DNA from: Takakia lepidozioides
Lineage: Eukaryota > Plantae > Bryophyta
Reading direction: 5' to 3'
NCBI GenBank assembly: GCA_030704615.1
Contig: CM060733.1
Coordinates: 18,290,001-18,354,000 of the forward strand
DNA: 64,000 nt
Shown: piece after piece, positions 2,278-58,992 of the stretch
How positions within the stretch are numbered: position 1 is the stretch's first letter
How the letters are laid out: each line of letters begins with the position of its first letter
Position numbers and translations under genes: made by a program
Notes under the pieces: model-generated
Databases searched by the model: none
What the model was told of the DNA's origin: nothing
Seen by the model: only the letters and a program-made list of their open reading frames with translations

Positions 2278-2279
2278 TT

Positions 2280-11693: not shown

Positions 11694-11748
11694 GATGAGG
11701 CCAATCCCAAGGACGATCGCGTACTGAACTCTAAGCTCTGATACCAAG

Positions 11749-12475: not shown

Positions 12476-12660
12476 CACACCCCTACCAACAGGGAGTCGA
12501 TGTCCTCATCGACTTGTCCATTTTGTAGAAACGAACATCCAAGTTGTGGCGTCCCACATCAAGGAGTTTGTTTCTGTACCATGGCGTCCCATGGCAAAGA
12601 ACCAAACCCCACACTTGACTCTACTCTCCACTAGCTAGTTCGGCCGACTTCCTCCAAGTC

Positions 12661-35770: not shown

Positions 35771-36535
35771 TCTCCTCAGTCGCCTATCTGATCCTCAAAC
35801 TTGTTGATGCCAATCCCCTCGTTTTCTTCAATCTAGAGCGGCTCCTTGCGCATTCTCAGATCCTCCCGCTGCAAGTGTGCTCATATGCTTTTGTTGGCTC
35901 TCTTGTAGAGAGAGACTTAGCGGAGACATGCAAGTCAATGGAGAAAATGTGATCAAAGTACCTTACATCGTGTCAAGGCGCTGATTGGTGTGTTGTGCTG
36001 GTAATGCTCCCTAGTCCTCTTATGTTGTGCCAAAGCAAAGCAAGAGAGCCAGTTGCCGTTTGAGGCTTATTGATAATCGATTGTCAGAGCGAGAGAGATG
36101 CAACCGAGCTCAAGTCGAACCTGCAGCACGGTAAAGACATCGGCAGGCGCCAATCTAGTACAATCTAGTACGGCTCAAAAGTGTGGGGCCCCAATTAAAC
36201 CCCAACCCTACAATAATGTCGAATAATTTGTGACGGGACTGCTCAAATTTTTTGTTTTTATTTATTTATTTATTTAGGAAAGGGGACTAAGGCCCTTTTA
36301 ATCAAATTAAATAAAACAAATTTGCATTTGCCCCGCCTGGCTGCAATCAAGAAATACCATGGCAATAAGTCTGATGCCTTACATTTCTTAAAGACTACTT
36401 ACAAAAAGTTTGGTTGACCTAGTGGTCTATGAAAAGCTTGCCAAGAACCAGTCTCTATGATTGGTTTACAACAACAGGAGAACTGAAAGCTAATTACATT
36501 CAATGTGCAGTAGAATTGGGTACATCAGTTCAGAA

Positions 36536-36883
36536 TGTCAAGTTAAATAAGCACAGTGTGAAAACAGCTAGAATAAAACTAGTTATTTGTATTTAACACT
36601 TGGATTTAGGTCAAGTGTTAAATCAGGTGTCAAGTTTAGTTTGACACCTGGTCCGTCTTATCTTCACGAGAGCGGCCGTCGCGCGGCTCATCTCTCTCGA
36701 GTTGAGCCTGCGCGACCGAGCTCCTGCATCGTTTAGGATTGAGTGTGCTCATGATGGGAGTGTAGGTTGTTGTGGGGTGGAGTCCCCACAGCTTGGGGTG
36801 CCCCTGGCTCGACTACTATTTCTAAGAGTGATGGTTTGGTTTTCATGTTTTGTGTCAACAGTGTGTTCGTTGGTTTCTTATCA
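36536..36883 (+). repeat. Split repeat A1 (348 bp, TG...CA)
   Basis: One mismatch seen against A2 (47836-48183). Confidence 0.95.
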
Positions 36884-37840
36884 CTCGAGAGAGATGATCT
36901 CTTACCTGTGAGTGCAAGGTAGGAGTCGAGGGTTAGCACTTGCAAGATTACCTGTGTGTAAGTAGTACTTAGTTTGAGAAGCATATCATTGAATGTGATC
37001 ACAAGATTCAGCGTGCCCTGAAACGCCTGGAGGATGACGATGCCGGAGCCGCCACTGTTATTGTAGTCGCTAAAGCTACCAAGTCACCAGAGGCTTTGGA
37101 GTACACGAGGAGAGACTTAAAAATGCAGCAGCAAATGCTAGTTGGCACCTATGCGTGATCCTTCTGGATGATTGTTTCCCCAGTAAGCTTATAGAGAAGC
37201 TCTACCGTGCAGCATGAGCAGCGCTGGCAAGCTGTGAACGCTGATACCTGCACTCTTGCAGTCTTGGAGTCCAAGCTAGGACACGGGGAATACGACCGGT
37301 CAACAACCAAGGTGCTGCATTTGATCAACAATCCTGAAGCGGAGGGAGCCCAGGCCACGGACTAGCTCGTCTCGTCTTACCCTGGGAGTGCAAAGGATGA
37401 ATAGGTGAAGATCCTTTGGCAGATCAGAGCAGGGCGGAGCTCGTTGCGTTGACTGGCTAGCCGTTATATGGTCGACAGTCGTTTAAGCTGCAGGGTTACG
37501 TTGCCGGGTGATCGATATTGTTTCCAGGTTTTCATTTGGTGGGCATGCCGGGAGCGTGGAGGTGTGAGGAGTGGCAGGGCTTTCATCAGTTGCATCTTTC
37601 TTAGCTGCTGTGTGTTTCACTAGTTGAACATCTTCGAAGCTGAATTACGGCTCAATTGGAAACCCGTACCCTGCTACTTCTGCCTATCGAGGTTATGGTG
37701 GGGGTGGATCAGGAGGGCAGGTGTTCCAGCTCCAGTTGTGTGCATATGTAACCTACCTCCCCGTAATCTCTTTTAGTTCTCCTCTAGAAGAGGTTACTTA
37801 CTTGGACTGACAGGACCTGGATCAGTCTGGAAGAAAGTTT

Positions 37841-38131
37841 GACCTGCGAATAACGTCCGTCCTTGTGATCCTTCTTCCTGTTCAAGAACCAGTCAGGTAT
37901 CTTGAACTGCCGGGGATTCGCGACAATCACCATCAAGTTCTTCAGCTCCGCACCCGACAGCTCACCAGCTCTCTTGCTGGTGTCGACGTCCGCTCTTGCA
38001 GACCAGGTTAGCAAAACGGCGCCCCAATCCCTTGATGGAGGTCAAAGCGAACATGATCTTCTGCCGTCCATCTACATTTGTGTTGAGCACTCGCAAAATG
38101 TGCTGAAATCTTCGTTGGCGATGAGCGACAT
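37841..38131 (-). pseudogene. RPS18: Processed 40S ribosomal protein S18 (uS13) fragment captured antisense
   Basis: [59 protein letters not shown]...[22 protein letters not shown]; no introns, two frameshifts, 3' truncated. Confidence 0.93.
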
Positions 38132-38873: not shown

Positions 38874-39440
38874 ATGGCTGGGGGAAATGAGGACGTAATT
38901 GAAGGGCAGGTCTCTTCTCTTAGCCTGTGCACACAAGGGGACAGGATTTATGTTTCCCAAGGAACTCAGACTGATTTGAGTGGAGAACAGTTGGACGAGT
39001 TGATTGCATACTGGGAGTCAGACATTAGCAGTAGACAACAGACTGCTGTAGTTGGCATTGAGGGCCTCAATATCGCCTTGGACAGTCAGAACTCTGTTGG
39101 AGCCAGCAGTTCTGCAGCTGTAGGTGAAATACCAAAGTGGGTGAAAGCTAGGCTTGGAACACAGCCAAAGACAGCTCCGGGGACCAAGGTGTTCAGCCAC
39201 AAGGCCGTGGTGTACTGGAGCAGAGGAGCAGGAGCTACACAAGTTTGTGCAATCAGACATGGTTGCAGCCGGATACGCTCTGCACAGGGCAACCACGAGC
39301 GGGGGTTCATCAGCAATGACATGTTTGTTGTGCGTGAAGGAGATGCAGTCATTCGCAATGAGGACACCCGCAACCGTCTCAAAGCTTTCGAGTTGAGAGA
39401 CTATCAGACCCTACCTTTTGTTTTCTTTAGTGTTCAGTGA
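38874..39440 (+). CDS. Orphan ORF upstream of gag (188 aa, unknown function)
   Basis: ATG-initiated and protein-like; the frame stays open about 57 codons past the TGA, to about 39614. Confidence 0.4.
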   Translation: MAGGNEDVIEGQVSSLSLCTQGDRIYVSQGTQTDLSGEQLDELIAYWESDISSRQQTAVVGIEGLNIALDSQNSVGASSSAAVGEIPKWVKARLGTQPKTAPGTKVFSHKAVVYWSRGAGATQVCAIRHGCSRIRSAQGNHERGFISNDMFVVREGDAVIRNEDTRNRLKAFELRDYQTLPFVFFSVQ

Positions 39441-40149
39441 GCGGGAGATAGGGGAGTATTGCTTTGTCTCTACCTAGCAGAAAGAGGAGAGGGTTGGTTA
39501 GAGCGAGCTACTGTAGCTTGGGACAAGGGTAGTGGCAGGTTTCTGGACATAGATATACCTCCTACACCTTACCATCATGCAGAGCGAGGCACTTTGAGAA
39601 AGTCTAGCAGTTGATAGCATAGATCAGGATTAGATCTTGCTTGGTTGGGCTTCTATTCTTCCCCTCCTCTCTGTACTATTTTCATTACCTTGTACTTGTA
39701 GTTGCCAAGCCTCTCTTGGTGGAGGCCAGTCAGTCCGGGGTTTTGGGCTGGGATATTTTGCAGGTCAGCATTGCAGCTGGATTTTTGGTGTGGGGGTGTT
39801 GATGTTTTGATTTTTTGTGTTTGGATCCCCCCCAACACCTGCATGCTTGACTGTGTGCCATGTTGGTTTTGTGTGGGCGCTTGTTTTCATAGGGATTAGG
39901 CCGGATTTGATCACCGGTCAATCCTAGAGTGTGCTGTCGGTGGTGAGGCTAGTGGATGACCAGCAAGACCACCAGTGTTTTTCTTCTATGGTGAGGCTGG
40001 GTTGATGACCAGCCAACCATAGGAGTTCTTGCGGTGGATGCAGGTGCAGGTGCCCTGAGCCTTGGGATATGACCCTTAAACTGCAACAGGTGCCCACCCG
40101 TGTACTATTAATTAGTACTAGAGCCTTATAGTGTCACGTGGAGAGGTGC

Positions 40150-41572
40150 GCATTGTGGTGTCATTACGGAGTTACCCAAGGGTTTTGAGGGGAGTACAGC
40201 TACAGGCAGTAACAGTGAGAGTGGGTTCACAAGACGAGGTATTCAGTTCAGACCACCTTCACCGCCACCCTCAATTACTGTAGAGTCAGACACAGACTCG
40301 GAGGCTTCATCAATAGGTGTGCACTTTCATTCGCCATTGTTGTGGGACGACATGGATGGAGATGTATGGAGCTACCAAGGGGCCTCGTAGGTACTCTGGA
40401 GCTGTGGGCACAATTGAGTTGGATGACTTTATCCAGGAGTTCGACAGCTGGTGTGATTTGCAGCAGATGCGCAATCCACAGCTATTCACCCATTCATGGC
40501 GTGGAAGGACTGTTCCAGCATTTGGAAGGCCCGCCTATGGACGATTACCACGAGTTCAGGCGAGGACATGAAGCAGAGATTGAGGAGTGGAGGATGTATT
40601 GGTCATCTGACTACGTCTCTATTACTCGAGGCACGACGCGACCAGTAGCTGCATCAGTACCAATAGCTCCCACTGCCAGCACTAGTAGTGGAGCAAGTAG
40701 TGCTGGTACTTCTGCAGGTGGTACCAGTTCAAAAGGTGCTACTACTCCCTCCTGCCACGACTACAATACATGTGCCTAGATTCAACCCGGTGGTGGAGTT
40801 CTTCCAGGAGTTGCGGAGGAACTACCAAGGTGTACGGACAGAGAAGCTGCGAAGTTTGCAAGACTTCCAGCGCAAACCCAGTGAGAGCTTGCGAGAGGCT
40901 ACACTCGTATGAGGCGCTTGATAAGTGTGACCCAAGGGGTTTACTGAAGCTCAGGCAATCCAGTTTCTGGTATGGAATTTGGACAAGGAGCTCAGGAGAA
41001 GGGTGCGGGATGCAACCCTATTACAAGCAGCCCAACCCACATTAGCAGATGTGTTTCTGCTGGCTGAGCGATTGAGCTCAACATGGTGGAGAGCGAGTTG
41101 TTACAATTGGATTGGCAGGACATGCCTGCACGGGGCACAGCTGTCAGCCCACAGGCACAAGGGACTGCCCAACAGCGTGGTCAGGGGGGCAAGGTTGCCC
41201 AGCCCAAGTTCCATGGAGCTTACAGGGGACCTTAGTGCAGAGGCCCGTGGCATCTTTTGCAGGCCAACAGCAACCAGGGGTGATATGTTGGACATGTGGA
41301 GGACCCCATGTCAGAGAGATTGCCCAGAGAGTGGCAAAAGGCCGGCACAAGCACAGCCTGCACAGTTGCAAGTGGGCATTGTGGCAAGTATGGGCATAGG
41401 CGATGCCCAGTGTTTGACTTGCATCCTGAGTTGCGCCCAGGCCAGTTCCAAGGGAACAATGGTGGCCGGGGCGAGGTGGACCAGCCCAAAGAGGACGAGG
41501 TGGTCGAGCACGAGGTGCAGGCCAAGGGCAAGCTCCACATGGCCAAGGACGCGGAGGTCAGGGTGTTGACCA
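40150..41572 (+). pseudogene. gag of the DNMT element (frameshifted)
   Basis: YGATKGPRRYSG...LDDFIQEFDSWCD, CWTCGGPH knuckle, second Cys/His cluster and RGG-rich tail; homologous to 61593-62993. Confidence 0.85.
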
Positions 41573-42284
41573 AGGCATGGCCAATCGGCTTCAGCAGCTA
41601 GAGCAAAGGCTCGCTGCCATGGCTATAGCTCAGGCGGTACCGGCTCCCAGGCGGGATGGTCACCTCCTGCTCCTGAGGGGAGATTATGGGAGGCATGGAT
41701 TCATGTGCGGAGCAGCACTACCACTAGAGCAGGTGGAGTCTGCTGCAGCCGTGACTCGAGCAGCAGCACGAGTTCCTGAGCCACGAAGTGCAGAGGTGGA
41801 GTTGGATCCACAACGTGGGGGGCAAGCCGTCAGGCAAGGCTGCCTCATCGTTCACCTTGGCGGAGACAGTGTCAACGCCATCCATGGCACCTAGTTCTCG
41901 CCCGACTGTTACCGCGGCGGACATTACTATGCCATTGGGGAGAGCTACACGTGCAGCACTGACACCTTCCACCAAGGCTAGTGCAAGCCGGTGTGTTGTT
42001 GGGGGCAGCCACCTCTGTGTGTCAAGCCCCACTGTTATCGGTAACCATGATTTGCGACGCCGGGAGTGAGACCAGTTGCAGTGTTCAGACTAGCAAGCAA
42101 CACCTGTGAGAGTGGGAGGTCACTCCATCTCTGCAGAGTTAGTGGAAGTGTAGTGGCAGAGGGATCCTCGGATTTGAGGGTCAAGACTGCCACGGCAGCG
42201 CCTGGCAAGCTGCAACTGCCAGATTGACGGAGCCTGCCAGCTAGGCCGCCTTTGAGTGCGCCACGGTGACACCTGGAGTTTGTC

Positions 42285-42720
42285 TTGTTAGACAACCAGG
42301 GAGGCATTTTCACTTTGAGTGGAACCGGCAGGCAAGAAGTACCGTCACTGCGGGTCTTGTTGGACGCGGGAGCCCAACCACTGATGTTGGGCAAAGCTGC
42401 TATTGCAGGTTTGGGCCTCATGGAGGCGGATATGGAGCCTTGTCCTTTCCAGATACAGACAGTCTCTGGGAGGATCAGAGCAGCGTGGGGCATGACACAT
42501 CATAGTGGCTATTCGACTGCAAGCCGGATCCATCCTGTATATGCTCAGTGATGCGAGCCAAGGCCATTGTGATAGAATGCGGTCCTCCTTACGATGTACC
42601 CTCGTTGGTGGGGCAGTGTTCTACCCCATGGTCTTTCACCCTGACTTATGGAGGGTTCTAGCATCTACGTCCTGGAGGAGTCAGCATCCTACAGGCCTGG
42701 ATGGCAGTCAGGGGATGGTC
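42285..42720 (+). pseudogene. Aspartic protease domain
   Basis: RVLLDAGAQPLMLG; the sister copy reads VLLDSGAQPLMLG near 63875. Confidence 0.8.
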
Positions 42721-43110
42721 GCCGTGCACAGCTCCCTGTGACATTCATTGGGGGTATTGCAGCTGCCCAGCGGGGCAAGAAAACACTACTAGCGCCTTCA
42801 CAGCTGCAGTTAGTTGGCCTGGAGAGTTGCTGGAAGGCAATGCCCATGCAGAGGATGTGCCACCTCCAGCAGAGCAGGATGACATGCATGGTACGGCGGA
42901 GTTGCCTGCCATGGTTGCTCACACTCCATTGTGGGGTACGAGCAAGGATTTGCAGCAAGCTGCTGATGGACGGGTGCAACAAGCTGGGTAGAAGCTTTTG
43001 TACCGTCAGGAGAGGAGGAGAGTGCGGGGTGATTGCACCAGGGAAACCTCAGTTGTCACCATTGGACACCACACCTCTTGTGTGGCAGCGGCCGGATGAA
43101 GGCATTATGC

Positions 43111-44060
43111 CTTCTGGACTTGTTTGGCGGGATCAGCACTGGATTGGCTGCAGTGCTGCAGGCAGGTGTACGAGTTCGACGTTACCTGTATGTGGAGAGG
43201 GATGAGACTGCACGACGCGTCTCACTGCGCCATGTTGCTCAGATGGTACAGCAGTACTGAGTGTTGCCGTTGCCTGTCTGCAGTTCGTGGATACCAGCAG
43301 GCCTTGCCAGCAGACATTGCGTTGCTGGGGGCGCAGGATTTGGAGCGGGTTGGCTCCATTGATCTGGTAGTGGCAGGTTGGCCCTGCCAAGGGCATTCAT
43401 CAGCCGGGCATGGCAATGGATTGCGAGACTCGAGGACGGGTCTGTTTTGGGAGATGGTGCGGATTTTGCGCCACTTGCAGCTTCATCAAGCTGTATCTCC
43501 AGCATACATCTTGGAGAATGTGCCACTGATGGGTGATTCTCGGGCCAGGGTGATGGCCAGTGTGCATCAAGTCCGGTCGTGGCTTGGGTCAGCAGTGTTG
43601 CTGGATGCAGCTGCAGTGGGGTCACGGGCTCATCGTCCACGACTATGGTGGACTAACTTGATGCCACCCGCACTGCTCAAGCGTGCATTTGATGGGGTGC
43701 AGCGGCCAGCACACCTCACCGTGGATGGCATTTTGGACACAGGAAGGCAGTCTCAACGTGTGAGACACGATGACCGTTCGCCTTTGGCAGTGGTCAACAG
43801 GGTGGGTCAACCACGAGCAGCATTACCTACACTGCTCAGCTTCCCAGGATCCCATGCTTTTCGGGATGGTGGACCTGGCCTCCTGTGGGATGCTCAGTTG
43901 CAGCAGTTAGTGGAGCCTAATGCCGACGAGCGAGAGCGGGCTATGGGGTTTTCCACTGGGACCACGGCGGTGCCTTCTCTTTCTGAGGCATCACGTCGTC
44001 AGGTGTTGGGGCAAGCAATGGATCTCAATTGCTTGACCTGGATTATCAGCTTGGCTATGG
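43111..44060 (+). pseudogene. DNA (cytosine-5)-methyltransferase domain, DNMT3-like, inside pol
   Basis: Motif I LLDLFGGISTG, II YLYVERDE, IV DLVVAGWPCQG, VI YILENV, VIII AHRPRLWWTN, IX ERERAMGF, X RRQVLGQAMD; one break near 43260. Confidence 0.93.
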
Positions 44061-44489
44061 CTGAGCAACGTAGAGTGCGGAGTGCACTTCCCTTGACGGT
44101 CTCTCTGCCTACCGAGACGGTACAGGCAGCGAGTGGGGGCGAGCCGGTGAGGACCACGGGTGTAGACATCCATGGCACACGTGGGAGGTGCTCGAGGTTC
44201 AGAGGGAGTTGGCAGCCAAGGCAGCTGTGATGGATGAGGTTGGGGATTCTTCTCGGGATGAGGAGGTTCTCAATGATGAGATGATGGGGCAGGATGAGGC
44301 CTTGTCATTGACTGAGCAGGAAGGGGGTACTGCTCAAGAGGTTGCAGCATAGCAACCACGGGACGCGTCCTCTACCTCTAAGCCCACTGGACTTAAGGTT
44401 GCAGTTACGGAGGACAATTGGGAGCCTGACATTGGACCCATTGTCACCGGAGGAGAGAGACGACGTATACGGCGGTTCCTGAGGGCTTA

Positions 44490-45850
44490 CAGGAATTGCT
44501 TTGCCTTCAGTTTGAAGGACTTGGGAGCACTGAAGGGTCAAGAGATCCGTATTGAGTTGGCCACTGACACGCCAATCTTTCGGAGACCCTATAGATACAG
44601 TGACATGGAGAGGTCTTTGATTCAGATGAGGACTCAAGATCTCTGGGAGGCAGGTTTTGGGAGCTCTCTGGTGGAGAGTATGCTTCAGCCACAGTGATGC
44701 CAGCTAAGAAGGATGTCTATGGCAATTGGAGAGAGACGTATGTGCGGTGATTACCGGCCTGTAAATCGTCAGACCAAGTCCGATAGGTATGCCATGCCAA
44801 CACCAGAGGAGATCTTTGATGCCATTGGGCATTCCAAGGTCTTTAGCACGTTGGATTTACGATCCGGATATCACCAGTTGCCGATCAAGGAGGCGGATAA
44901 GCAAAAGACGGCATTCTGGGGGATCAATGAGCACGGGAAGGATTGCCTATACCAGTGGCGGTTCTTACCATTTGGGCTTAAAAACGCTCCCGCTGAGTTT
45001 CAAAGAGTCATGGACAGGATTCTAGCAGGGGTGGAGTTTGCTCGGTGCTACATAGATGACATCATCATCTTTAGTGCTACGGTGGAGGAGCATGAGAGAC
45101 ACCTTCAGGGGGTATTTGAGCGCTTGAGGACGCACGGATTGAAGTTACATCCGGGCAAGTGCAAGTTTTTCCACAACCAGATTGAGTATCTGGGTCACAT
45201 GATATATCCTGGAGGATTGGGGGTACAGCAGACTAATAGGTAGAGTCCATTGCACAGGTTCCACGCCCCACGGATGTGAGCCGAGTTCGAGCTTTCATGG
45301 GGTTAGCAAACTATTACAGACGGTTTGTTAAGGGATTTAGTGCCATTGCAAAGGCTCTAACCAAGCTGACCAAGGTGGACCAGGAGTGGCAGTGGGAAGA
45401 TGAGCAAGAAGAAAGCTTTTCAAGAGCTCAAGGCGAGGTTGACCTCGGCGCCCATCTTGAGACGACCTATCAGGGGGCGTTTTCAGCTGCATACAGATTG
45501 GAGCATGCTGGGGCTTGGAGCGGTGCTCACACAGGTGGATGATGAGGGAAGAGAGTTCGTAGTGGCTTATGCTAGCCGCTCGAACAATGTTGCAGAGTCT
45601 AAGTATAGCTCATATGAGGGAGAATGCTTAGCTGCAGTGTGGGCCGTGGCACACTTCAGGTGCTATCTATACGGCAATCTCTTCACCCTTGTCACGGATC
45701 ACCAACCACTCAAGTGGTTGATGGAGTCAGACAAGCTTACGGGGAAGCTTGCACGGTGGGCACTCATCCTTCAAGAGTATGACTTTCAGGTGGTGCATCG
45801 ACCGGGTTTGGTCAATCGCAATGCAGATGGGTTGAGTCGCAATCCATGCA
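44490..45850 (+). pseudogene. Reverse transcriptase and RNase H
   Basis: [62 protein letters not shown]. Confidence 0.95.
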
Positions 45851-46149
45851 CGAGCCAGCAGGATGACACTGGAGCTCGGTGGCATGGTGAGACGGACGAG
45901 GAGATGGTGCCCGGATGGCATGCATCTGCATTTCTGTGTATCTTGGCAGCGGAAGGCCAGGTTGGACCTGCAACAGGGATGACTGTAGATCAAGTGTCTG
46001 AGGACCCTGAGGCCAGCAATGAGCAAGGTGGCGCCAAAGATATACATGAGGATTCAGTTGTGTTGGACTACCTCCGCACTGGAGACACTGGCAGCCACTG
46101 TGACTGCCAAGGAGAGGGATCGGATCCTACAACGAGCCAAGAGGTTCAA

Positions 46150-47488
46150 GTGGGAGGGGACACACCTGCTCCGAGTGTGGGAGGATGGTCGAGTGAGGAT
46201 TGTGCCTCACCCAACACAGCGGGCACGGTTAGTGCGGCATGCCCATGAGGAGTTGGGGCATTTTGGGGTGCGACGCACTCATAGTCTACTGCAGGCAGGG
46301 GCAGTATTGGTGGCGTGGTATGCACACAGAGGTGCAACAATTTGTGGCTAGGTGCATGGTGTGTGACAGGGTGCGTGCTTCATTCAACGCCCCTACTCCA
46401 CAATTGCACCCTCTTCCGATCATGGGATTGGGCTACAGGTGGAGTCTTGACTTCGCAGGGCCGTTGCCACTGACCATGCGCCACAACAAGTACGTGTTGG
46501 TGATGGTGGAGCACTTCTCCAAGTGGATTGAATTGGTTCCATTGCCTGATAAGGCTAGTGAGGGAGCTGCGTATGCATTCTTGGATTGTGTGCTTAGCCG
46601 ATTCGGTGCTCCAGCTGAGGTACTCACGGACCAAGGGAGAGAGTTCTTGGGGGAGTTTCAGGCTTTGTGTGACAAGGCCTTGATAGACCACCGCACCACT
46701 TCTCGGGATCATCCTGAGGCCGATGGCTTGGCAGAGAGAGTTGTTCAGACAGTAAAGAGGGGTTTGCGCAAGTATGGCTTGCAGAAGGGACACCTAGGAG
46801 ATTGGGACCTTCAGTTACCCTGGTTAGCCATGGGCTACAGGTTCAGCAAGCAAGCATCACTTGCCTCCTTCTCACCATACTTTCTTCTCTTTGGCCGAGA
46901 GCCGGATTTGCCTACATCCATTCGCAGAGAAGCTGCTACAGTTCTTAACCTTGACGATCCGGACGTGTGGGCACGTGCATGTGAGCAGCGTGCAGAGTTG
47001 TTCAAGAGAGTCATGCCCATGGCTTTCGAGAACCTTGCCATTGCACAACACCGTGATACGTTGAGGTATGCTACCATACGTGGTGGGGGCTATCGTCCTG
47101 GGGTTCGGAGATTCAACCCTGGTGACTATGTCTATCTGCAGCAGACTGCCCTACGACCCTGGATGTGACTGCAGGACGTGTTATTTTGAGGGTTCGAGAG
47201 GTCTTGCCCTCAGGCGTCTTGGTCTTGGAGGGTCGGGATGGCATAACTTGGAAGGACCATGTGCGTAATTGTGCGCCATGTCACCTTCCGAATGTCGATG
47301 GCAGGATTGACCCAAACCTGGCAGTGGTATCTGCAGGTTTGAGGTGCATGTTGTGTGGGTCTGCTAAAGGGGCAGCCACCATGCTGGTGTGTGATCGATG
47401 CTCTAGAGGTTGGCATATGGGATGCTTGACTCCACCTCTTGAGATGGTTCCAGATGGGGATTGGTTATGTCCACATTGCATTGGATAG
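46150..47488 (+). pseudogene. DDE integrase with C-terminal PHD finger
   Basis: HEELGHFG...CMVC, SLDFAGP, LTDQGREF, GLAER; ends CMLC...LVCDRCSRGWHMGCLTPPL...GDWLCPHC (C4HC3). Confidence 0.93.
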
Positions 47489-47735
47489 TGGGAGTGGATA
47501 CAACCATGGAAGGCTAACAAGAAACGCAAGGCCCAGCTACTAGGAGACCTTGAACACACGAGATCCTGGCTCAAGTTCACAGATTGCAAGACGGCGACTA
47601 ACGATGGGGCTACTCTTGTACCCGGCCTCTTGGTCTATAGAGTTTGAGTACAATAGGGACAGTGATAGAGGACTTAGTACGGTTGTGGCTATTACATCTT
47701 GTAGCTATCTGGAGGTAGAGGGACCTATCCACCAG

Positions 47736-48269
47736 CTAGGGGGGCGATTGTGGCAGACTACTTTATTGTGCATATATGTGTGGTGTGGTTTGGACAGCGA
47801 TGTAGTTGTGTAGCGATATGTATGCGCACGACAGCTGTCAAGTTAAATAAGCACAGTGTGAAAACAGCTAGAATAAAACTAGTTATTTGTATTTAACACT
47901 TGGATTTAGGTCAAGTGTTAAATCAGGTGTCAAGTTTAGTTTGACACCTGGTCCGTCTTATCTTCACGAGAGCGGCAGTCGCGCGGCTCATCTCTCTCGA
48001 GTTGAGCCTGCGCGACCGAGCTCCTGCATCGTTTAGGATTGAGTGTGCTCATGATGGGAGTGTAGGTTGTTGTGGGGTGGAGTCCCCACAGCTTGGGGTG
48101 CCCCTGGCTCGACTACTATTTCTAAGAGTGATGGTTTGGTTTTCATGTTTTGTGTCAACAGTGTGTTCGTTGGTTTCTTATCATTGTGGCAGACTACTTT
48201 ATTGTGCATATATGTGTGGTGTGGTTTGGACAGCGATGTAGTTGTGTAGCGATATGTATGCGCACGACA
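47736..48269 (+). repeat. PPT plus B1-gc-A2-t-B2 terminal block
   Basis: CTAGGGGGGCGAT then B1 (85 bp), GC, A2 (348 bp), T, B2 (85 bp, identical to B1). Confidence 0.95.
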
Positions 48270-50076
48270 AGAACAAAAAGCAAAATATGTGAGCACTTGA
48301 AGACTACACTGACCTTAGGGACTCTCTTGTTGCCATGCTCCAAAAGATGGGAGCTGTTGGGCAACCACTAGTAATATCCACTGTACAACCTATACTTCGT
48401 GGTATGGTTGAATCAATTGCTCTTGATGTGCTCCGCAACACACGTGGTGGCTTCAAAATCACATGTGAATGGACACGCCAATTTATGAACAATTACATGA
48501 ATTGGACATTTAGAATTGGAACTACCGCTGCTAGCAAACTTCCAATGGATTGGATGGAGCAAGGGCGCTTCGTGGCTTATCGCATTGCCTATCTAGCAAA
48601 AACATACAACAATCCTCTTTCTGTGGTTGTAAATAGCAACCAAACAGGGATTCACTTGATATCTACAGCAAGGGAACGCACATGGGAGAGTAAGGGCACC
48701 AAACACATCCAAGTATTGGGTATAGAACACAAGAGACAAGTTACAATAGTGGTATCTTCAACTGCAGACGAAGTTCTACTTCCTCTTCAAGTGGTTTTTA
48801 TAGTAACTACACAGCGGACATTACCACCAAACAACCGAGGGAGAGCAAAATGCATTGCAGATAGATGGGATCTTACATACAATGAAAACCATTGGTCCAA
48901 TCTACAAACCACACAACAATTTGTGCAGAAAATATGGTGACCTATCTCAAAAGCCAATTCTACAGTTGGGGCTACAAAAGCAAAAAAAAATGGTGTGGTT
49001 AATAGACTGATGGTCAGTTCACAAAAGCAAAGATTTTTAAGATTGGATGAAAGAAAAACATTCAAACATTCTGGTAATTTTTGTACTGGCTAATTGTACA
49101 AGTGCATTGCAACCAGCTGATGTGATTCTACAACATCCGCTGAAACGTGCATTCAAAATGGCATTCAATACTTGGACCACCGGAATGATCAAAGAGCAAA
49201 TTGAAGGTAGAGATCCAAGTGTGGATTTCAGAATGAGTAATCTGAAACCTTACATTTGTGAGTGGCTACATCAAGCATGGACAGAAGTGAAAGCAATGAG
49301 ATCTATGATTGTGAAAGGATGGGAGAAAACAGGACTTACAAGGGCTTAGGAGATTGAGTTTCAACTTGCTGCAATGGAGGCAAATACAACAACTACGATG
49401 TTTACAGCAGTCCCGATATTAAAGAAACCACATAAATCGATGTGGAATCTGATCTGACAGACGAAACTTCAACATTGTCTACAAGAAACACGAGTTACAA
49501 CTTCAGATTCAACCCAACCATCTTCAACCCAACCATCTTCAAGTACAAATGTTGGAAGATCGAAGCTACGAGACTTAGCTAGAAAACGGAAGACATAGAT
49601 AGATTGCATGTATGAAGACAGACAACAAACAACACCACATATGTACTATTGCTGGTGGATTAGACCACCAAGATATTGTATCTTCTTGAAAGCCATCAGA
49701 TATTCCATTTCATTTCCGTTCTGCCTGATGATTACTTGAAGCTGATTCACTACACCGTTTGGGGGGGTTAGCCGGGGCGTCGCTATTCGCTTTGTCGTGC
49801 ACCTAAGCATCGTGCCACAACATACATCGCTGTCCACCATACATTCTAAGCACACAATCCTAGAAAGCTATGCCACAATGATAATGAAAATGAACACAAG
49901 GGAAACACTCCACTCATGAATCCACTCAATCACATAAACTAAGTCAAGCCAAGGGCACCCTTGCTAAGGGAATCCACCCTACAAAGCCCTCAACACACTC
50001 CCTCTCAATACCTAGAGCTATGGAGGTGAGAGAGGCTCATGGAGGCTCAACTACAAGAAGATGAGCCCTCCTCAAC

Positions 50077-53000
50077 TGTCGCGGCCCTTTGCCTTGAGGG
50101 CAGGGGGTCGGGACCCATGAGGGGCTGCCCCTATGGTGGGGGCAGCGGCAGCGATAGGTATGGGGGGCTGAAGCACCCTTGAGTGCCCAAGGCACTCAAG
50201 GAGGCGGAGGCGCTCACTAGGTGGAGCCCCGCACACCGGGTTGCGGTGGGGGTGGCTCCACAAGGGATGGTGGTAGCTTAGCGGGACTTAGTGGGGGTGG
50301 CATAGGACTCACCATGGGGGCGGAGACCTCGTGGTGGGAGTCGTGGGGAGTCTTGGGACTCATCACGGTCCATAGGGGCCGTGGTGAGTGGGCCAAGACT
50401 CACCGCGACTCATCACCGGGAGTCGAGGGTTTTCGTGGTGGTTCGCCATAAAATGGCATGGCTGGTTGTGAAACCCCCGCGGACAGCTACAGAAGTATAT
50501 ACAGGGAGTAGTAACCTCGAGAACGGTGCAAGCCCGTTGGTGACCAAAAACTAGTGAGTAAGCGAGGGAGCCGGAAAGCGACCAAAGAGTGGGGAGCTGT
50601 TCCGGACTGCCAACTACCAAAGGGAATTCCCGCTGGTTCCAAATCGGTGGAGGGTTCTTTGGGAGTTCAAAGGGGGACCGTTATGCCCCGGTGAGCAGCC
50701 GAAGCTCCAAGTTGGTTCGGCGGCCAGGTTGGGAGTTAGGCGCGCGCATCAAGCTAGCAACTATGACCTGAAGGGGAGCTTACCGAAGTGAGGTGCGCGA
50801 CACTTGGTATCAGAGCCTAGAGTTCAGTACGTGATCGTCCTTGGGATTGGCCTCATCATGGGGTCAGGCAAGCCAAAGCGAAAGCGGAACGGCCCAAAAG
50901 ATGATGATCCTGGTGAGCCCGATGGGGGCGACGTGTCAACGAGGCGGCCGTTTGAGGAAGCGATGCATGTCTCCGAAAATGAGGCCGCTCAAGAGCGGGA
51001 GGAATCGGAGGAGTCGGAGCCCAAGGAATCCCTGAGAGCTCCGACCGACCAACAGATGCCTCCCATGCCGGCAGCCTTTTGGGAAGGGTTGTTGGCGCAA
51101 TTTGGCAGGACGTTGAAAGACGTGTTGAAGGCGGCTAATGCCACTTCCACTAAGGCAAAATTTAAGGTGAAGCCTAAGGAACCCGGCACCTTCGAGGGCG
51201 TCCGAAATCGGAAGGCACTCAACACCTGGCTCCTGGAGCTAGAGCAGTACTTCCGGGCGGCCAAGTTGAGTGACGAGGACCGGGTGGAAGTGGCTCCCAC
51301 CTATTTGAGGGGCTATGCTCAACAATGGTGGCAGAAACGCCTTCACGACCGAGGTCCAAGCCCAGAAACCTTGAATTGGAGTGGGTTCAAGGAATTGATG
51401 AAAAGGCAGTTTGTGCCCCTCAACGCGTCCTGGCTTGCCCGGGACAAGATGAGGAATTTGAAGCAAACAGATGACATTCGGGGATATGTCCATGCTTTCA
51501 ATGTGTTGTTGCTCGAAGTCGCGGACATGGCAGAACCAGAAATGGTCTTCAACTTTGTGGCGGGACTGGCCCCATGGGCTAGGCGGAAGTTGGAGGAGAA
51601 GCCACCTAAGACTTTGAACGAGGCAATTGAGAGGGCTGAATGTTTCTTGGATGTCCCTAGGGGTGAAAGACAAGGCCGTACGGAGCTGAACCACAAGAAG
51701 ACCCGGCGGGAAGGTGACGCCTTCCGACCGGAAAAGAAGTGGGATAGGCCACGCGGCGACAATGGCACGTGGAAATCGAAGGGAGGGCCTTCACAAGTCA
51801 AGGCGGCACCCGGTGCTTCAAAAGGAAAAGCGGGTGGAGCGGCCTATGGCGGACAGAAGGCGACCTTTGATGGATTGTGTTTCAATTGCGGGGAGCCCAG
51901 GCAAATGGCCAAGAAGTGCACGAAGCCCCGGCAATTGAACATGACTCGGGCGACCACAGAGCTGTCGGAAGATACCATCAGTCGCTTGGTGGAAGCGGTG
52001 GTCGCCAGGACTTGCAAGGTAGGCAAATTTTCTTGTGAAATGTATCAGGAAACTGGCGCCTTACGTAAAGGGAGTCAGTTATTGTTCGTGGATGGGATAA
52101 TATCCGGAACTAACGTGTCATTGTTGGTGGACACAGGAGCGTCGCACTCCTTCATGACACCGGCAACGGCACAAAAACTGGGACTCCCGACAAGTGACGT
52201 GGGGGCCTCTATTGAGGTGCGTTCTGCCAAAGGAGAACCGCAATTGGCGACGAGGTTGGCGTTCGATGTCCCTCTTCAACTGGGGAAATGGGAAGGACGT
52301 GAGAACTTCACCATTTGCGAGATCGATGGAGTGGATCTCATTTTGGGGATGACCTTTTTGAGCAAATCCGGAGCGGTCATAGATGACCGCAAAAGAGTAG
52401 TCACACTACCATGTGGGGATGGTGGCAAAGTCTTACGAGTATTAGAAACGCCCAAACCCGTGGGAGGACGAATAAACCTTCTGTCAGCAAGGGAGTGGGT
52501 CGTGGAAGAGGCACATGAGCCCCAGTTTTTGCTTTACATTAGAGAAGTGAAGGGAGAAGGCGATGGGGAGCCGAGCCCAGATTGGATCAAGGGGATTTTG
52601 GAGAGATACCAGGATGTGATGCCGGAGGATTTACCAAGCGGCTTGCCACCGCGAAGAGGAGTTGACCACAAGATTGAGGTGATACCGGGATCGGAACCAC
52701 CTGCCAAGGCGCCCTACCGGTTGAGCCACAGAGAGTTGGTCGAGCTGAAGACTCAGCTCAAAGATCTAATGTCAAAGGGGTACATCTGGCCGAGTAAGTC
52801 ACCTTACGGAGCCCCGGTGCTATTCGCAGACAAGAAAGATGGGACGCTGCGGATGTGTGTCGATTACAGGGCTTTGAATAAGGTGACTATCAAAAACCGG
52901 TATCCTTTGTCAAGGATCGACGACCTTTTCGATCGGTTGGCAGGAGCAAAGTATTTCAGCCGGATTGATCTGCGCTCCGGCTATCATCAAATTCGAGTGG

Positions 53001-56000
53001 CGGAAGGAGATGAGGAGAAGACCGCGTGCATGACAAGGTATGGTTCATATGAGTTCTTGGTGATGCCTTTTGGGCTCACCAATGCACCCGCGACATTTAG
53101 CACGCTGATGAACAGCCTTTTCCAGGAGTGGTTGGATGACTTTGTGATCGTGTACATCGACGACATCTTGGTGTATTCAAAAACAAAGGAGGAGCACCTG
53201 AAGCACCTCAAAAGGGTGTTCCAGAAATTGTGGGAAGAGAAGCTGTATGCCAAAGCTTCAAAGTGCGAATTCGGGGTCACAAAAGTGGAGTTCCTGGGGC
53301 ATGTGATTACACAGGATGGGATCAAAATGGATGACAGAAAGGTGAGGGCGATCTTGGACTGGGAGCCTCCGACTTCGGTCCCGGGAGTGCGATCCTTCCT
53401 AGGACTCGCCTCCTATTACCGGAAGTATGTGAGAAATTTCGCCAAGATCGCGGGGCCGTTGTCAGACCTTCTGCGTAAATCCAAAGTTTGGATATGGAAC
53501 ACCTTGTGTGGCCAAGCTTTTGCTGAATTGAAGCAGCGGATGGCGGAAGCTCCAGTCTAAAATCCCGGAGTTCGATCGGCCGTTCGAGATTCATACAGAT
53601 GCGTCGGACTTTGCGATTGGGGGTGTACTGATGCAAGATGGACGTCCAGTGGCTTACGAAAGTAAGAAACTGAACGAAGTGGAGCGACGGTGGCCGACGC
53701 ACGAGAAAGAGATGAAGGCGGTGGTGCACTGTCTTGAGCTTTGGCGCCACTATGTTGGTTCCAACCCAGTGAAGGTGTTCACGGACAATGTTACGGTGAA
53801 GTATTTTGCCACGCAGCCCAAGTTGTCCCCAAAACAACTTAGGTGGCAAGATACTTTGGCGGTGTTTGACGTGGATATCCAATACAAACCGGGACGTGAC
53901 AATGTGGTGGCCGATGTTTTAAGTAGAAAGCAGCAGCTCCTGTTGGTGTACAGGGGCGAGACGGCGTTCCAAAGGAAGATCCGGAAGGCTTGCCAGAAGG
54001 ATGAGCTGGCGAAGTCCGTGATGCAGGACTTGAGGAGGGGGGTTAAATCGCAATTCCACTTGCAAAATGGACTGCTCCGGTACAAGCAAAAGCGTCTCTA
54101 CGTGCCGAAGGGAGGGATCAGAGATAGTCTCTTGAGAGAATGTCATGATAGCGCGCTTGCGGGCCACGGCGGAGCTAAGCGCACTGCGGCACTCTTGAAG
54201 AAAGAGTATTTCTGGCCCAAACTGAGGGAGGAGGCAGAGGAGTATGTCAAGACATGCACCACATGCCAACAAAACCGGAGCGAGTACAAAAAGCAAGCGG
54301 GGCTGTTACAACCCTTGCCGATTCCAGAGGGGACTTGGGAAAGCGTCTCGATGGATTTCATGACTGTTATGCCGCTGTCAAAAGGATTCGATGCAATCAT
54401 GGTGGTGGTGGATAGGTTCAGTAAAATGGGCCATTTCATCCCCACCAAGGAGACGGCAACGGCGCAAGAGACAGGGCAACTTTACTTCGCCCACGTCTTA
54501 AAACATCATGGAGTCCCGAAGGATATTGTCTCGGACCGCGATCCAAAGTTTACGAGTAAATTTTGGAGGACACTTTGGAAGAAGATGGGGACGAGGTTGA
54601 AGATGAGCACCGCCTTCCGACCTACGACCGACGGCCAAACGGAAAGAGTGAATTCCGTAGTGAAGCAGATCTTGCGGAATTACGTGTCGGCAGACCAATC
54701 AGACTGGGTGGAACACTTAGACGCGGTAGAGTTCTGTTATAATAACACAGAACACTCCACAACGGGAGTTTCCCCTTTCGTATTGGTCTATGGAAAAGCA
54801 CCTCTGGTGCCAACAAGTTGGGCCGCCCAGGACGTTGAGGAACCGGCAGTAGCGGCGGTACTGGAAGAACGCGAGCGTTTGTTGAAGCTCGCAAAATACA
54901 ACATTGCCAAAGCGAGGAAACGGTATGAAAGGCAGGCGAATCGGAAGCGGAGGGAAGTTAAGTTTGAGACAGGCACGGAGGTCTCGTTGAACATCAAGAA
55001 TTTCCGACTACCTCCGGAAGTGAGTCCAAAATTTGTACCTCCGTATGCGGGACCCTTTCGCATCCGGAAGGTTATGAATGAGGATGTGTATGAATTGGAG
55101 CTGCCGGCAAACAGCAAGGTGCATCCAGTATTTCACGTCTCCCTTTTGAAGCCTTACTTCAAAGATGAAGCGCGTCCGAATCGGCATCAAGTGTTGCGTC
55201 CGCCACCTGTGTTGTTGGATCATGAAAATGAACCTGAGTACGAGGTGGAGGCAGTACTTAAGTCGAGGAGGTTCAAGAACCAAGAAACGGAGTATCTCGT
55301 CAAATGGAAAGGCTATCATCATGTGGAGGCATCTTGGGTGCGTGCCTCAGAAATGGGAAACGCATCCGAGGCGGTTGCAGTTTTCGAAGGGCGACCTCAA
55401 AAGCGGAAGAAGCGTTGATGGGGACATCAACCTTGGAGCGTGGGGGAGGAAATGCATGCTTAGCCCGGCTTAGCTAGCTCAGGAATCCGATTGCAAAAAC
55501 TTGTATTGTACAAAAAATTGTTATAAAGGAAATGGGTTCCAAATGTTGTGTGTCCTATTTTGTTTGGAATGGTGATGCATGGTGTGGTTGGCTAGTGTGT
55601 AGAATGCATGCTAGCTTACAAAAGTGGGAGAGGTAAATTGGGTTAGTCGTGTGTTTGCGCAGTGCCGAAATCGGGTGACTCCCATCCAAAGGGCAAGGAA
55701 ACATGCGCCTTCTTTGGGTGCTAGTGCGCACCTGGCGCGTGCGCGTACTATAACTGCGCTACCGAGGTGGTTGCCTTGTAGTGCGGGCTAACGCGGAAGC
55801 TATGTGCTTCCGTTCACGTACTATAATCGTGTAGCCTCGGGACGAAGTCGTAGTGCGACTTCGACGTGTTCCCGTACCTCAGGCCAACATTCCAAGACGG
55901 ACCCAATTGTAGTGATTGGGGCGCACGGTTGGTTCAAGGTTATCTTCCTAGTCAAAGGGGGTTCGAGGTGAACCCTTGCGCAAAGTGATGCCAAAAGCGG

Positions 56001-57042
56001 CATCAGGAGCGATCGCAAGCAATGTTGTTGCAGTAAGGCGATTCGATCCTCGGGGAGGATCGTTCCTTGACCTTGAAGAAGGCCAAGAAGAGTGCACTGG
56101 GAAGAGCTTGAGAGGCTCCACCCCTAGCCGGGACTTGGAGGAAGTCGGCCAAACTAGCTAGTGGAGAGTAGAGTCAAGTGTGGGGTTTGGTTCTTTGCCA
56201 TGGGACGCCAAGGTACAGAAACAAACTCCTTGATGTGGGACGCCACAACTTGGATGTTCATTTCTATAAAATGGACAAGTCGATGAGGACATCGACTCCC
56301 TGTTGGTAGGGGTGTGTGTCGCGGCCCTTTGCCTTGAGGGTAGGGGGTCAGGACACATGAGGGGCTGCCCTTGTGGTGGGGGCAGCGGCAGCGATAGGTA
56401 TGGGGGGCTGAAGCACCCTTGAGTGCCCAAGGCACTCAAGGAGGCGGAGGCGCTCACTAGGTGGAGCCCCGCACACCGGGTTGCGGTGGGGGTGGCTCCA
56501 CAAGGGATGGTGGTAGCTTAGCGGGACTTAGTGGGGGTGGCATAGGACTCACCATGGGGGCGGAGACCTCGTGGTGGGAGTCGTGGGGAGTCTTGGGACT
56601 CATCACTGTCCATAGGGGCCGTGGTGAGTGGGCCAAGACTCACCGCGACTCATCACCGGGAGTCGAGGGTTTTCGTGGTGGTTCGCCATAAAATGGCATG
56701 GCTGGTCGTGAAACCCCCGCGGACAGCTACAGACGTATATATAGGGAGTAGTAACCCCGAGAACGGTGCAAGCCCGTTGGTGACCAAAAACTAATGAGTA
56801 AGCGAGCGAGCCGGAAAGCGACCAAAGAGTGGGGAGCTGTTCCGGACTGCCAACTACCAAAGGGAATTCCCGCTGGTTCCAAATCGGTGGAGGGTTCTTT
56901 GGGAGTTCAAAGGGGGACCGTTATGCCCCAGTGAGCAGCCGAAGCTCCAAGTTGGTCCGGCGGCCAGGTTGGGAGTTAGGCGCGCGCATCAAGCTAGCAA
57001 CTATGACCTGAAGGGGAGCTTACCGAAGTGAGGTGCGCGACA
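50077..57042 (+). mobile_element. Full-length chromovirus copy C (Galadriel-like)
   Basis: 726-bp LTRs at 50077-50802 and 56317-57042 (about 14 substitutions by eye); PBS at 50805-50816; no 5-bp TSD. Confidence 0.97.
50858..55418 (+). pseudogene. gag-pol of copy C (single frameshift near 53557)
   Basis: ORFs 50804-53560 and 53631-55418 cover gag, PR, RT, RH, INT and chromodomain. Confidence 0.95.
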
Positions 57043-57707
57043 ATGATAATAATGAACACAAGGGAAACACTCCACTCATGAATCCACTCAATCACATAAA
57101 CTAAGTCAAGCCAAGGGCACCCTTGCTAAGGGAATCCACCCTACAAAGCCCTCAACACACTCCCTCTCAATACCTAGAGCTATGGAGGTGAGAGAGGCTC
57201 ATGGAGGCTCAACTACAAGAAGATGAGCCCTCTTCAACACTCACAAGGGGAAAACCCATCCCCATGTCCCAAATGAGGTTTGACATCTCACTTGGCATAT
57301 GAGACCAATCCTAGTTAACTAGAAGTAGTTAATTCTAGTTAACCATGACTAAAACCATGACAGCTGTCGTGCACCTAAGCATCGTGCCACAACATACATC
57401 GTTGTCCACCATACATTCTAAGCACACAATCCTAGAAAGCTATGCCACAATCGCCCCCCTAGCTGGTGATTAGGACCCTCTAACACCGGATAGCTGACAA
57501 GTATCCATCTCAATAAGATCATCGCTTGGTCTTCAATTGCACATGTCCCAAATTTTTTAAGTATATGGATCAAGAGCCCAGGTGCAACGAGAGCCCCATC
57601 GTTAATCGCCTATTTGCAATCCATGATCTTCAATTGAGTATCCATGGCATTGAGCTCCTACCAACTAGACCTTGGATCGCTTGGCAACTCCACCATTGTC
57701 ATGCCCA

Positions 57708-58990
57708 CTACCTATGTCCAAGGCATTGTGGACACAACCATTTTCCACTAGGAACCTCTTCAAGTGGCGGTGTCAAGCATCCCATGTGCCACCCCCTTGA
57801 GCATTTGTCACACACCAACATGGTTGCGGCACCACCAGCATGCCCACATAGCATGCAACACAACCCTATAAGTACCACTGCAAGGTTGGGATCTATCCTC
57901 CCAACCACATGTGGAAGATGATATGGTGCACAATTGCGCACATGGTCCTTCCATACCATGCCATCTCGACCCTCCAAAATCAACACTCTTGAAGGCAACA
58001 CCTCCCGGACCCTTAGAATCACACGTCCTACTGTAACATCCAAAGTCGTAGGTGTGTTGTCTACTGCATATATACATAGTCCCCAGGGTGGAAACGCCAA
58101 ACACCTGGCTGATACCCCCCTCCACGTATAGTGGCATACCTCAATGTGTCTCGGTGTTGGGCAATAGCAAGGTTCTCAAAAGCCATAGGCATGACTCTCT
58201 TGAACAACTCAGCCCGCTGGGCACATGCTTGTGTCCACACATCCAGATCATCAAGATTGAGGACTACTGCAGTCTCCCTGCGAATAGATGCAGGCAAATC
58301 TGGCTCTCGGCCAAAGATAAGGAAATAAGGTGAGAACGAGGCAAGTGATGCTTGTTTGCTAAACCTGTAGCCCATGACCAACCAATGTAGCTGAAGGTCC
58401 CAATCTCCTAAGTGTCCCTTCTGCAAGCCATACTTGCGCAAGCCTCGCTTGACTGTTTGTACAACCCTCTCTGCCAGGCCATCAGCCTCGGGATGATCCC
58501 GAGAAGTAGTGCAGTGATCTATCAAGGCTTGCTCACACAAAGCCTGCAACTCCCCCAAGAATTCTCTCCCCTGGTCCGTGAGTACCTCGGCTGGAGCACC
58601 AAATTGACTAAGTACTCGATCTAAGAATGCATACGCAGCCCCCTCACTTGTCTTGTCAGACAATGCCACCAGTTCAATCCACTTGGAGAAATGTTCCACC
58701 ATCACCAGCACATACTTGTTATGGCGAATCGTTAGTGGCAATGGGCCTGCGAAGTCAAGACTCCAACGATAACCCAAACCCATAATGGGTAAAGGATGTA
58801 ATTGTGGAGTACGCGCATTGAAAAAAAACCCCCACTCTATCACACACCATGCACATTGCCACTAACTGTTACACATCCGTGTGCACGCCCCGCCACCAGT
58901 ACCGTCCTTGCAGCAAATTATGAGTGCGCCGCACCCCAAAATGTCTCAACTCCTCATAGGCATGGCGTACCAATCGCGCTCGTTGTCTTG
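57708..58990 (-). pseudogene. Integrase plus PHD finger of the minus-strand split-repeat copy
   Basis: SLDFAGP, LTDQGREF, GLAER; CMLCG...LVCDKCSRGWHMGCLTPPLEEVPSGKWLCPQC. Confidence 0.92.
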
Positions 58991-58992
58991 GC

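Follow-up and report, generated by a model that had tools for sequence, protein, structure and literature searches.

Methyltransferase-bearing retrotransposons were first met in algae. KnitGypsy-Dnmt3, of the charophyte Klebsormidium nitens, has DIRS-type repeats in the order A-coding-B-A-B (de Mendoza et al. 2018, PMC5890265), and SymbioDIRS-Dnmt3, of Symbiodinium, encodes an enzyme that methylates CG de novo in yeast (PMC5890265). The Klebsormidium domain gave no methylation in yeast, a result that its authors call inconclusive (PMC5890265). Why a transposon keeps an enzyme that silences transposons has been a question since 2018, in algae with few genetic tools. The kind is thus already known from Klebsormidium and, in print, such elements come from algae only. 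We found no printed report of bryophyte elements with a DNA methyltransferase (DNMT) in the openly accessible literature searched; the accessible text of Sarre et al. 2025 (PMC12344493) says only ‘streptophytes’, and its supplements may list bryophyte sequences.

Here we describe an element of this kind in a 64,000-nucleotide stretch of the Takakia lepidozioides genome, referred to throughout as ‘the window’. Our main reading, to which we give a probability of about 0.55, is that the window holds a broken copy of a high-copy element of the KnitGypsy-Dnmt3 kind, in which the DNMT ends the Gag-protease-DNMT frame at a predicted leaky stop. The enzyme would then enter the particle in amounts like those of the capsid, and CpG sites of the new cDNA would be its likely target, ahead of integration.

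The element and its coding parts

The element is a Ty3/Gypsy retrotransposon of 11.7 kb (36536-48269), with gag, protease (PR), DNMT, reverse transcriptase (RT), RNase H (RH), integrase (IN) and a C-terminal PHD finger. Its coding parts are these:

37853..38117, minus strand: broken ribosomal protein S18 fragment in the element's 5′ region (PF00416, E=1e-8 and 1e-10 on two pieces)
40214..41600, plus strand: gag with a zinc-knuckle-like region and several frame breaks (tblastn of Marchantia protein P0004 and of protein P0130)
42270..42485, plus strand: aspartic protease, LLDAG (PF13975, E=0.012, a weak match; same position in relatives)
43081..43260, plus strand: N-terminal DNMT piece with motif I (75% identity to P0002; aligns with motif I of intact relatives)
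43286..44065, plus strand: DNMT3-type catalytic domain, motifs IV-X (PF00145, E=2e-13; DNMT3A top in PDB)
44350..44358, plus strand: conserved in-frame stop, TAG CAA CCA, a predicted readthrough signal
44353..45243, plus strand: reverse transcriptase (YIDD), broken (PF00078, E=9e-34)
45240..45850, plus strand: RNase H, broken (PF17917, E=2e-35)
45990..47168, plus strand: DDE integrase with H2C2 domain, broken (PF00665, E=2e-14; PF17921, E=2e-5)
47345..47479, plus strand: PHD finger at the integrase C-terminus (PF00628, E=2e-11; one record with integrase in relatives)

Membership in Ty3/Gypsy rests on the PR-RT-RH-IN order with a DDE integrase, and on TG…CA ends with a target-site duplication. 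In place of two equal LTRs around the coding region there is an A…B-A-B arrangement, which lowers the case for a canonical LTR element, not that for Gypsy descent. Two other identities were rejected: DIRS elements have a tyrosine recombinase and no target-site duplication, and are ruled out by the rve integrase and the 4-bp duplication found here; chromoviruses are ruled out because the integrase lacks a chromodomain and ends in a PHD finger instead. An ESM Atlas search with the PHD finger gave scores of 0.81 or less, a lead only. The gag region has no Pfam match, and an ORF of ~200 aa at 38847-39440 has no convincing one. A short piece near 37200-37360 may resemble MAD1; it and the S18 fragment are possibly captured host transcripts. 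The third copy in the window (below) has a different sequence in the region matching 36900-38200.

The DNMT domain

Motif I (LDLFGGISTG) starts at 43111 in ORF 43033-43260, and ORF 43100-44230, also on the plus strand, carries motifs IV (PC, Cys at 43385), VI (ENV, 43514), VIII (AHRPR, 43628), IX and X (GQAM, 44009). The canonical, unpermuted order read in the initial annotation is thus borne out by the ORFs and the alignment, and it rules out a DRM identity. The main piece matches PF00145 with E=2.3e-13 and 50.7 bits (cut-off 22). The N-terminal piece, searched alone, matches nothing in Pfam; it is 75% identical over 53 aa to a relative from Calypogeia.

The likeness to DNMT3, also claimed at the outset, is upheld by profile and fold rankings, in which DRM, DNMT2 and bacterial enzymes all come after DNMT3. 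Against solved structures, DNMT3A ranks first for the window piece alone (E=2e-7). A profile of 18 rows (16 unbroken relatives and the two window pieces) gives DNMT3A at E=3e-22, DNMT3B at 3.5e-19, DRM-type enzymes at 6e-11 to 1e-7, and M.HhaI at 2e-7. An AF2 model of an intact relative, metagenome locus L002 (pLDDT 88, pTM 0.89), likewise finds DNMT3A as its best match (E=8.5e-20), and all of the fold-search rows shown are DNMT3A or DNMT3B. The catalytic residues are kept in the relatives: the ENV Glu is present in 54 of 55 aligned domains and the Cys in all 55, a count biased because the locus scan itself used the pattern GWPCQ or ERExAMG. Two loci, L056 and L061, have E in place of the motif IV Pro.

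A frame break near 43260-43285 splits the domain in the window copy. The repeats of this copy differ at only 1 of 433 positions, yet its frame breaks are many. Thirty-six contigs of sequencing run X1 depart from the window sequence at the DNMT break, and the breaks may be private to this copy, inherited from a defective sublineage, or assembly errors.

A conserved stop between DNMT and RT

The initial annotation placed the DNMT within pol. A protease does lie upstream and an RT downstream; the in-frame stop at 44350, conserved in relatives, parts the DNMT from the RT, and the placement within pol holds in a loose sense only. The pattern TAR-CAR-YY occurs in 44 of 47 DNMT-RT linkers, against 5.7 expected by shuffling; these linkers stem from few lineages and are not independent events. 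Two of the remaining three look like C-to-T decay, and one has nothing of the kind. Fourteen of the 44 have TAA rather than TAG. In relatives with no frame shift, the stop lies 79-117 codons past the DNMT, in frame with both DNMT and RT, and is followed by CAA CCC, CAA CCA, CAG TTA or CAA TCA; CAA CCC, one base off CAR-YYA, is the commonest context in the peat-moss-type loci. Four Marchantia gene models terminate 97 aa past motif X. Of the catalogued proteins in which PR precedes DNMT, 66 stop short of RT (fragments included) and nine continue into it; five of the nine are Marchantia or Sphagnum gene models, perhaps spliced across the stop. The Klebsormidium-group records P0053-P0055 are without the stop.

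CAR-YYA 3′ of a stop is the readthrough signal of TMV (PMC2194720), and retroelements are described as requiring roughly 20:1 Gag to Pol (PMC2194720; PMC3441728). No report linking CARYYA to a retrotransposon turned up in the literature searched. From these patterns we infer that ORF1 is Gag-PR-DNMT and that RT-RH-IN-PHD would be made by readthrough. With the stop conserved, the DNMT closes the Gag-PR-DNMT frame, outside the RT-IN Pol. The earlier proposal that the enzyme shares a frame with RT and integrase finds no support in the bryophyte-type elements, whose frame stops at the conserved TAG-CAR-YY site, and the expected enzyme dose shifts from Pol level to capsid level.

Repeats, ends and replication

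The element is bounded by the following features:

36532..36535: left 4-bp target-site duplication, AGAA (same 4 bases at 48270-48273)
36536..36883, plus strand: A1 terminal repeat, 348 nt, TG…CA (1 mismatch to A2)
36688..36701, plus strand: likely self-primer, close to where the RNA 5′ end is inferred to lie (complements 36884-36897 exactly over 14 nt; reached by 0 of 300 shuffles)
36884..36897, plus strand: primer-binding site (PBS) complementary to A1, not starting with the TGG of tRNA-primed sites (covaries with A)
47738..47748, plus strand: polypurine tract directly before B1 (from sequence; same in peat-moss-type loci)
47749..47833, plus strand: B1 repeat, 85 nt, TG…CA (identical to B2)
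47832..47837: B/A junction, palindrome CAGCTG, predicted integrase cut site (recurs in other copies)
47836..48183, plus strand: A2 repeat (1 mismatch to A1)
48185..48269, plus strand: B2 repeat, right end of the element (other copies stop here too)
48270..48273: right target-site duplication, AGAA (matches the left copy)

The 348-nt A thus recurs near the right end between two 85-nt copies of B. This DIRS-like layout is met in the window, in the sister copy described below, and in loci L037, L039 and L051. The 4-bp duplication is exact in the window and in four of five loci tested; the fifth matches at 3 of 4 positions. For other copies in the source organism, single long contigs are the informative evidence: they show the A start (X4 record 13) and the B end (X1 record 8, X4 record 19), and two records bridge the A/B junction. 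A tract followed by B…B is also seen in L062, a locus of the second layout (see ‘Relatives and range’).

The pairing between PBS and A1 changes in step, extending over 12 nt in the third window copy and up to 15 nt in peat-moss-type loci. Among 14 A1 ends tested, three pair over 15 nt, eight over 8-10 nt, one over 6, and two not at all; in L005 the 8-nt match sits at another position. Such covarying complementarity fits self-priming of the Tf1 type (PMC6317226).

Since the polypurine tract precedes B1, the working LTR would be B-gc-A. The A/B junction repeats the one or two bases that lie between the tract and B1, as expected from the joint of two cDNA ends. CAGCTG is the B/A junction of the window element, of its minus-strand sister and of L002, L012 and L037; older copies show changes there of the kind that deamination leaves. 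If a simple circle were the intermediate, some insertions should read A-B-A…B, but B lies upstream in 0 of 14 independent 5′ ends, so only one of the two possible junctions appears to be used. The simplest reading of the ends, against which this 5′-end count speaks, would be end joining followed by an integrase cut at the internal palindrome, and foamy-virus integrase is described as cutting 2-LTR palindromes (PMC1180852). Five loci have B1 and then flank, with no A, and could come from 1-LTR circles or from recombination between B repeats. A rearranged copy whose 4-bp duplication is intact (L045, 13100-13150; L048 has the same insertion) retains ~9 PBS bases at its A/B junction. The combination of split repeats and a DDE integrase suggests that integration follows a route other than the textbook LTR scheme, and A…B-A-B elements are likely missed by LTR finders.

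Other copies and the neighbourhood

Two further members of the family lie to the right of the element:

49793..58992, minus strand: 3′ portion of a sister copy, comprising IN, PHD and B1-A2-B2, its A2 interrupted by a chromovirus-type element
58993..64000, plus strand: third copy of the family, inserted into the sister and truncated where the window ends, with A1, PBS, gag and PR

The third copy reaches only into its protease at the window edge. From run X1, 77,648 contigs could be placed on the window, and the summed depth is 1.1-1.3 million over the main DNMT bins, 0.85-1.36 million over RT-IN and ~200 over the flank, which is not a copy number. The family is very abundant in the source organism. 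That other copies carry the domain is supported by this RT-IN-like depth and by dozens of loci with the DNMT in the same position. Runs X1, X2 and X4 are one sample, and X6 is an independent plant metagenome; three contigs of run X14, possibly an RNA run, do not count here as a sign of expression; the share of words found in organisms B and C was 0.22-0.25.

Nesting is a feature of the region: 49793-64000 holds three elements, two of them of the DNMT family, and nested or inverted members are also present in L047, L058 and L077. A preference for insertion into other elements is possible. The chromovirus-type element in the sister's A2 (50077-57042) is flanked by a 196-nt, 98% identical duplication (49881-50076 and 57043-57238), far longer than a normal target duplication. 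Across 1-12700 and 50077-57042 there are several young nested copies of chromodomain-bearing Ty3 elements, with LTRs 96-100% alike; this family is CWG depleted and CpG little depleted.

A land-plant host, surmised earlier from the neighbouring genes, is supported by one gene, a flanking SDR, and a moss is the likely source. Of the 18 matches to this SDR, the best is from Sphagnum troendelagicum (77% identity), followed by Marchantia paleacea (52%), with the remaining 16 at 46-49%. An intron-split kinase that may be of the RLCK-V type lies near the element. A Pfam scan of 68 ORFs of the host region gave nothing beyond two kinase pieces. The flank ORF at 48293-48940 (~200 aa) has no convincing Pfam match; a DNA-transposon remnant is our guess.

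Relatives and range

The sources named among 82 longer DNMT homologues are Calypogeia fissa (71-76% identity), Marchantia polymorpha (18 records, 60-74%), two Sphagnum species (56-57%) and K. nitens (46%). A named Sphagnum protein shares 90% identity with L002, the main locus of the peat-moss type. No vascular plant, hornwort or Physcomitrium is named among the 82, or among the best 120 of 1188 shorter matches, in a word-filtered search that makes this a weak negative.

The 80 metagenome loci have two layouts. The first is the window's, PR-DNMT-RT-RH-IN-PHD; in the second, found in 12 GC-richer loci, the DNMT lies between RNase H and integrase. The PHD finger sits on the integrase in both. With a threshold of E≤1e-30, an unfiltered search returned 554 representatives, other DNMTs perhaps among them. 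The best 150 of these comprise 96 of the second layout, 10 of the window's, and 44 with DNMT only or otherwise uninformative, and among them the second layout is the commoner one. One second-layout protein, P0061, has a Tudor-like domain (PF21743, residues 1191-1239) after the PHD finger. A DNMT-plus-PHD record comes from the chlorophyte Hariotina reticulata, and its DNMT is a close relative.

P0145, named as a methyltransferase of a bacterial MAG, clusters with the Gag-PR-DNMT record of L038, on a 9317-nt contig, and is likely a mis-binned plant retrotransposon. Domains of these elements are otherwise annotated as host ‘DNA methyltransferases’, so that DNMT inventories may be distorted. The 17 loci on viral contigs hold generic MTases only, with no close viral donor among them; the longest viral match, at 10001-10744 of L085 (a 504-kb viral contig), is an MTase that aligns over the whole domain at 23% identity.

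Selection and descent

When the window is compared with 31 peat-moss-type loci, the DNMT has saturated synonymous sites (pS 0.72-0.77) and a pN of 0.17-0.23, slightly higher than the 0.11-0.19 of RT; omega, where computable, is 0.06-0.10. The domain is therefore under purifying selection, and the question whether it evolves neutrally, raised with the initial annotation, is answered in the negative. When binned, omega of the DNMT tracks that of RT, and for both it is near 0.7 in close pairs, as expected for dead copies, and near 0.2 in distant pairs. Alignment A2 excludes L035, which has a stop codon.

Trees of DNMT and RT for 32 elements recover the same subgroups, so the DNMT is co-inherited with RT. 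The PR-DNMT-RT type forms one group in the DNMT tree (100/99), K. nitens included. The element is of the same kind as that of Klebsormidium, one of the possibilities raised earlier, and common descent of the two is possible. The same group has 98/96 in the RT tree with the outgroup inside it on a long branch; the root is unreliable, and the trees contain no host DNMT3. In the DNMT tree, Marchantia and the main peat-moss type form a group that leaves out the window copy (100/97), a hint of either transfer or paralogous lineages of some age.

What the methyltransferase may do

Put together, the parts suggest the following model. The DNMT, at the end of the Gag frame, would be packed at capsid-level abundance, and occasional readthrough of the stop would supply RT-RH-IN-PHD. 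Reverse transcription would be self-primed, the working LTR would be B-gc-A, and the cDNA ends would be joined to form the A/B junction. The DNMT would mark the exposed cDNA with CG methylation; integrase would cut the internal CAGCTG of the 5′ LTR, leaving A…B-A-B, and the PHD finger, reading histone H3, would steer insertion. That the DNMT methylates the element's own cDNA seems to us slightly better than an even bet, on the strength of the retained catalytic residues, the predicted capsid-level dose, the CG activity of SymbioDIRS-Dnmt3, the CpG-poor coding sequence, and the pairing of split repeats with methyltransferases both in DIRS elements and here. The negative yeast result for the Klebsormidium domain counts against it, as does the non-specific nature of the CpG depletion. 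At synonymous positions, observed/expected C3pG1 is 0.39 and 0.18 in two window pieces, 0.28 in the third copy, and 0.11-0.49 in 10 of 11 DNMT-bearing loci (0.72 in L056), against 0.78-0.79 in the window's chromovirus family, a single control family; host exons (0.57-0.61) and a DNMT-less element in L049 (0.40) are also low.

Alternatively, an active enzyme might have host chromatin as its substrate, either where the element inserts or, in trans, at other copies; with the PHD finger it would set the chromatin state around the insertion. The presence of PHD on the integrase in both layouts favors this, as does the position of the DNMT directly before integrase in the second-layout majority of the best 150 representatives. 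In the bryophyte-type elements, however, the Gag frame holds the DNMT and integrase is encoded elsewhere, and that the domain has moved freely between two positions is what one would expect of an enzyme that is cleaved off and diffuses within the particle; we consider action on chromatin unlikely. More doubtful still is a mainly non-catalytic role, in which the domain would be retained to bind DNA or as a structural module, for instance one that holds or shields the B/A junction during joining and cutting. The inactivity of the Klebsormidium domain in yeast (PMC5890265) would agree with such a role, as would the altered motif IV of L056 and L061, and use of a single junction calls for some protecting factor. 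Against it, lineages whose synonymous sites are saturated have retained the Cys, the ENV and the SAM-binding motif I, and such retention would be difficult to account for if the domain did no catalysis.

The reading to which we attach almost no weight is that the DNMT is a mere passenger, whether picked up from a host DNMT3 in a single insertion or produced by a chimeric assembly or by contaminating algal DNA. The many frame breaks of the window copy and the host gene fragment in its 5′ region are what might suggest it. It is largely refuted by dozens of loci, and by named proteins of liverworts and mosses, that have the DNMT at this same place, by contig depth over the DNMT about equal to that over RT-IN, and by the intronless state of the domain and the purifying selection on it; the flanking SDR, closest to Sphagnum, also speaks against it.

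Methylation of the element's own cDNA is the reading that we carry forward. With it goes a wider proposal, which we offer tentatively and at odds clearly short of even: that these elements form an unrecognised green-lineage clade of integrase type, spanning chlorophytes, charophytes and bryophytes in up to hundreds of lineages, which would be self-primed, pass through a DIRS-like circle cut at an internal palindrome, and be targeted by PHD, and that in land plants a Gag-level DNMT3 would methylate the cDNA before the host sees it. Since the same kind of element occurs in the model plant Marchantia polymorpha (the 18 named records), for which a line that has lost CG methylation is described (10.1101/363937, in the part available), the question posed in algae becomes testable.

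Comparison with known systems

KnitGypsy-Dnmt3 is the closest described element. The two share Gypsy domains, an intronless, non-permuted Dnmt3, purifying selection, and the DIRS-type repeat layout, and the K. nitens record GAQ92009 (46% identical, DNMT before RT) falls in the same DNMT-tree group as the window element. They differ in host and abundance: the window element is in a land plant and very abundant, whereas K. nitens copies are described as fewer (PMC5890265). They differ also in where the DNMT is encoded, which is the Pol ORF according to PMC5890265, with the K. nitens record continuing into RT, and the Gag frame in the window type. The in-frame stop before RT therefore makes the window element a land-plant variant of KnitGypsy-Dnmt3, not a plain member. 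The parts of PMC5890265 that cover KnitGypsy-Dnmt3 describe no self-priming, 4-bp target-site duplication or palindromic junction, and ‘PHD’ has no occurrence in its text and the supplements searched. SymbioDIRS-Dnmt3 is likewise a retroelement with a Dnmt3 and A-coding-B-A-B repeats; it has a tyrosine recombinase, whereas the window element has a DDE integrase, TG…CA ends and target duplications.

Host enzymes, such as bryophyte PpDNMT3b (Yaari et al. 2019, PMC6453930, as far as its available text describes it) and animal DNMT3A, share the canonical motif order and the DNMT3 fold. The window DNMT differs in being ~22% identical to DNMT3A, without host regulatory domains, intronless and mobile. 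Chlamydomonas Gypsy-7a_cRei (10.1101/2022.06.16.496473) is also a green-lineage Gypsy polyprotein with a PHD finger; the two passages on ‘methyltransferase’ in the available text of that work are about other genes. Self-priming elements of the Tf1/Tcn1 type (Neumann et al. 2019, PMC6317226) resemble the window element in having a fold-back primer and no tRNA-type PBS; ‘PHD’, ‘methyltransferase’ and ‘Marchantia’ have no occurrence in the accessible text of that paper. Foamy-virus integrase (PMC1180852, in the portion available) offers a parallel in that a palindromic junction is a possible integrase substrate; there the palindrome is at the LTR-LTR junction, and here it lies inside the inferred LTR. 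Set beside these systems, what is new in the present elements is the conserved stop, the covarying self-primer, the anatomy of the junctions, and the breadth of the clade.
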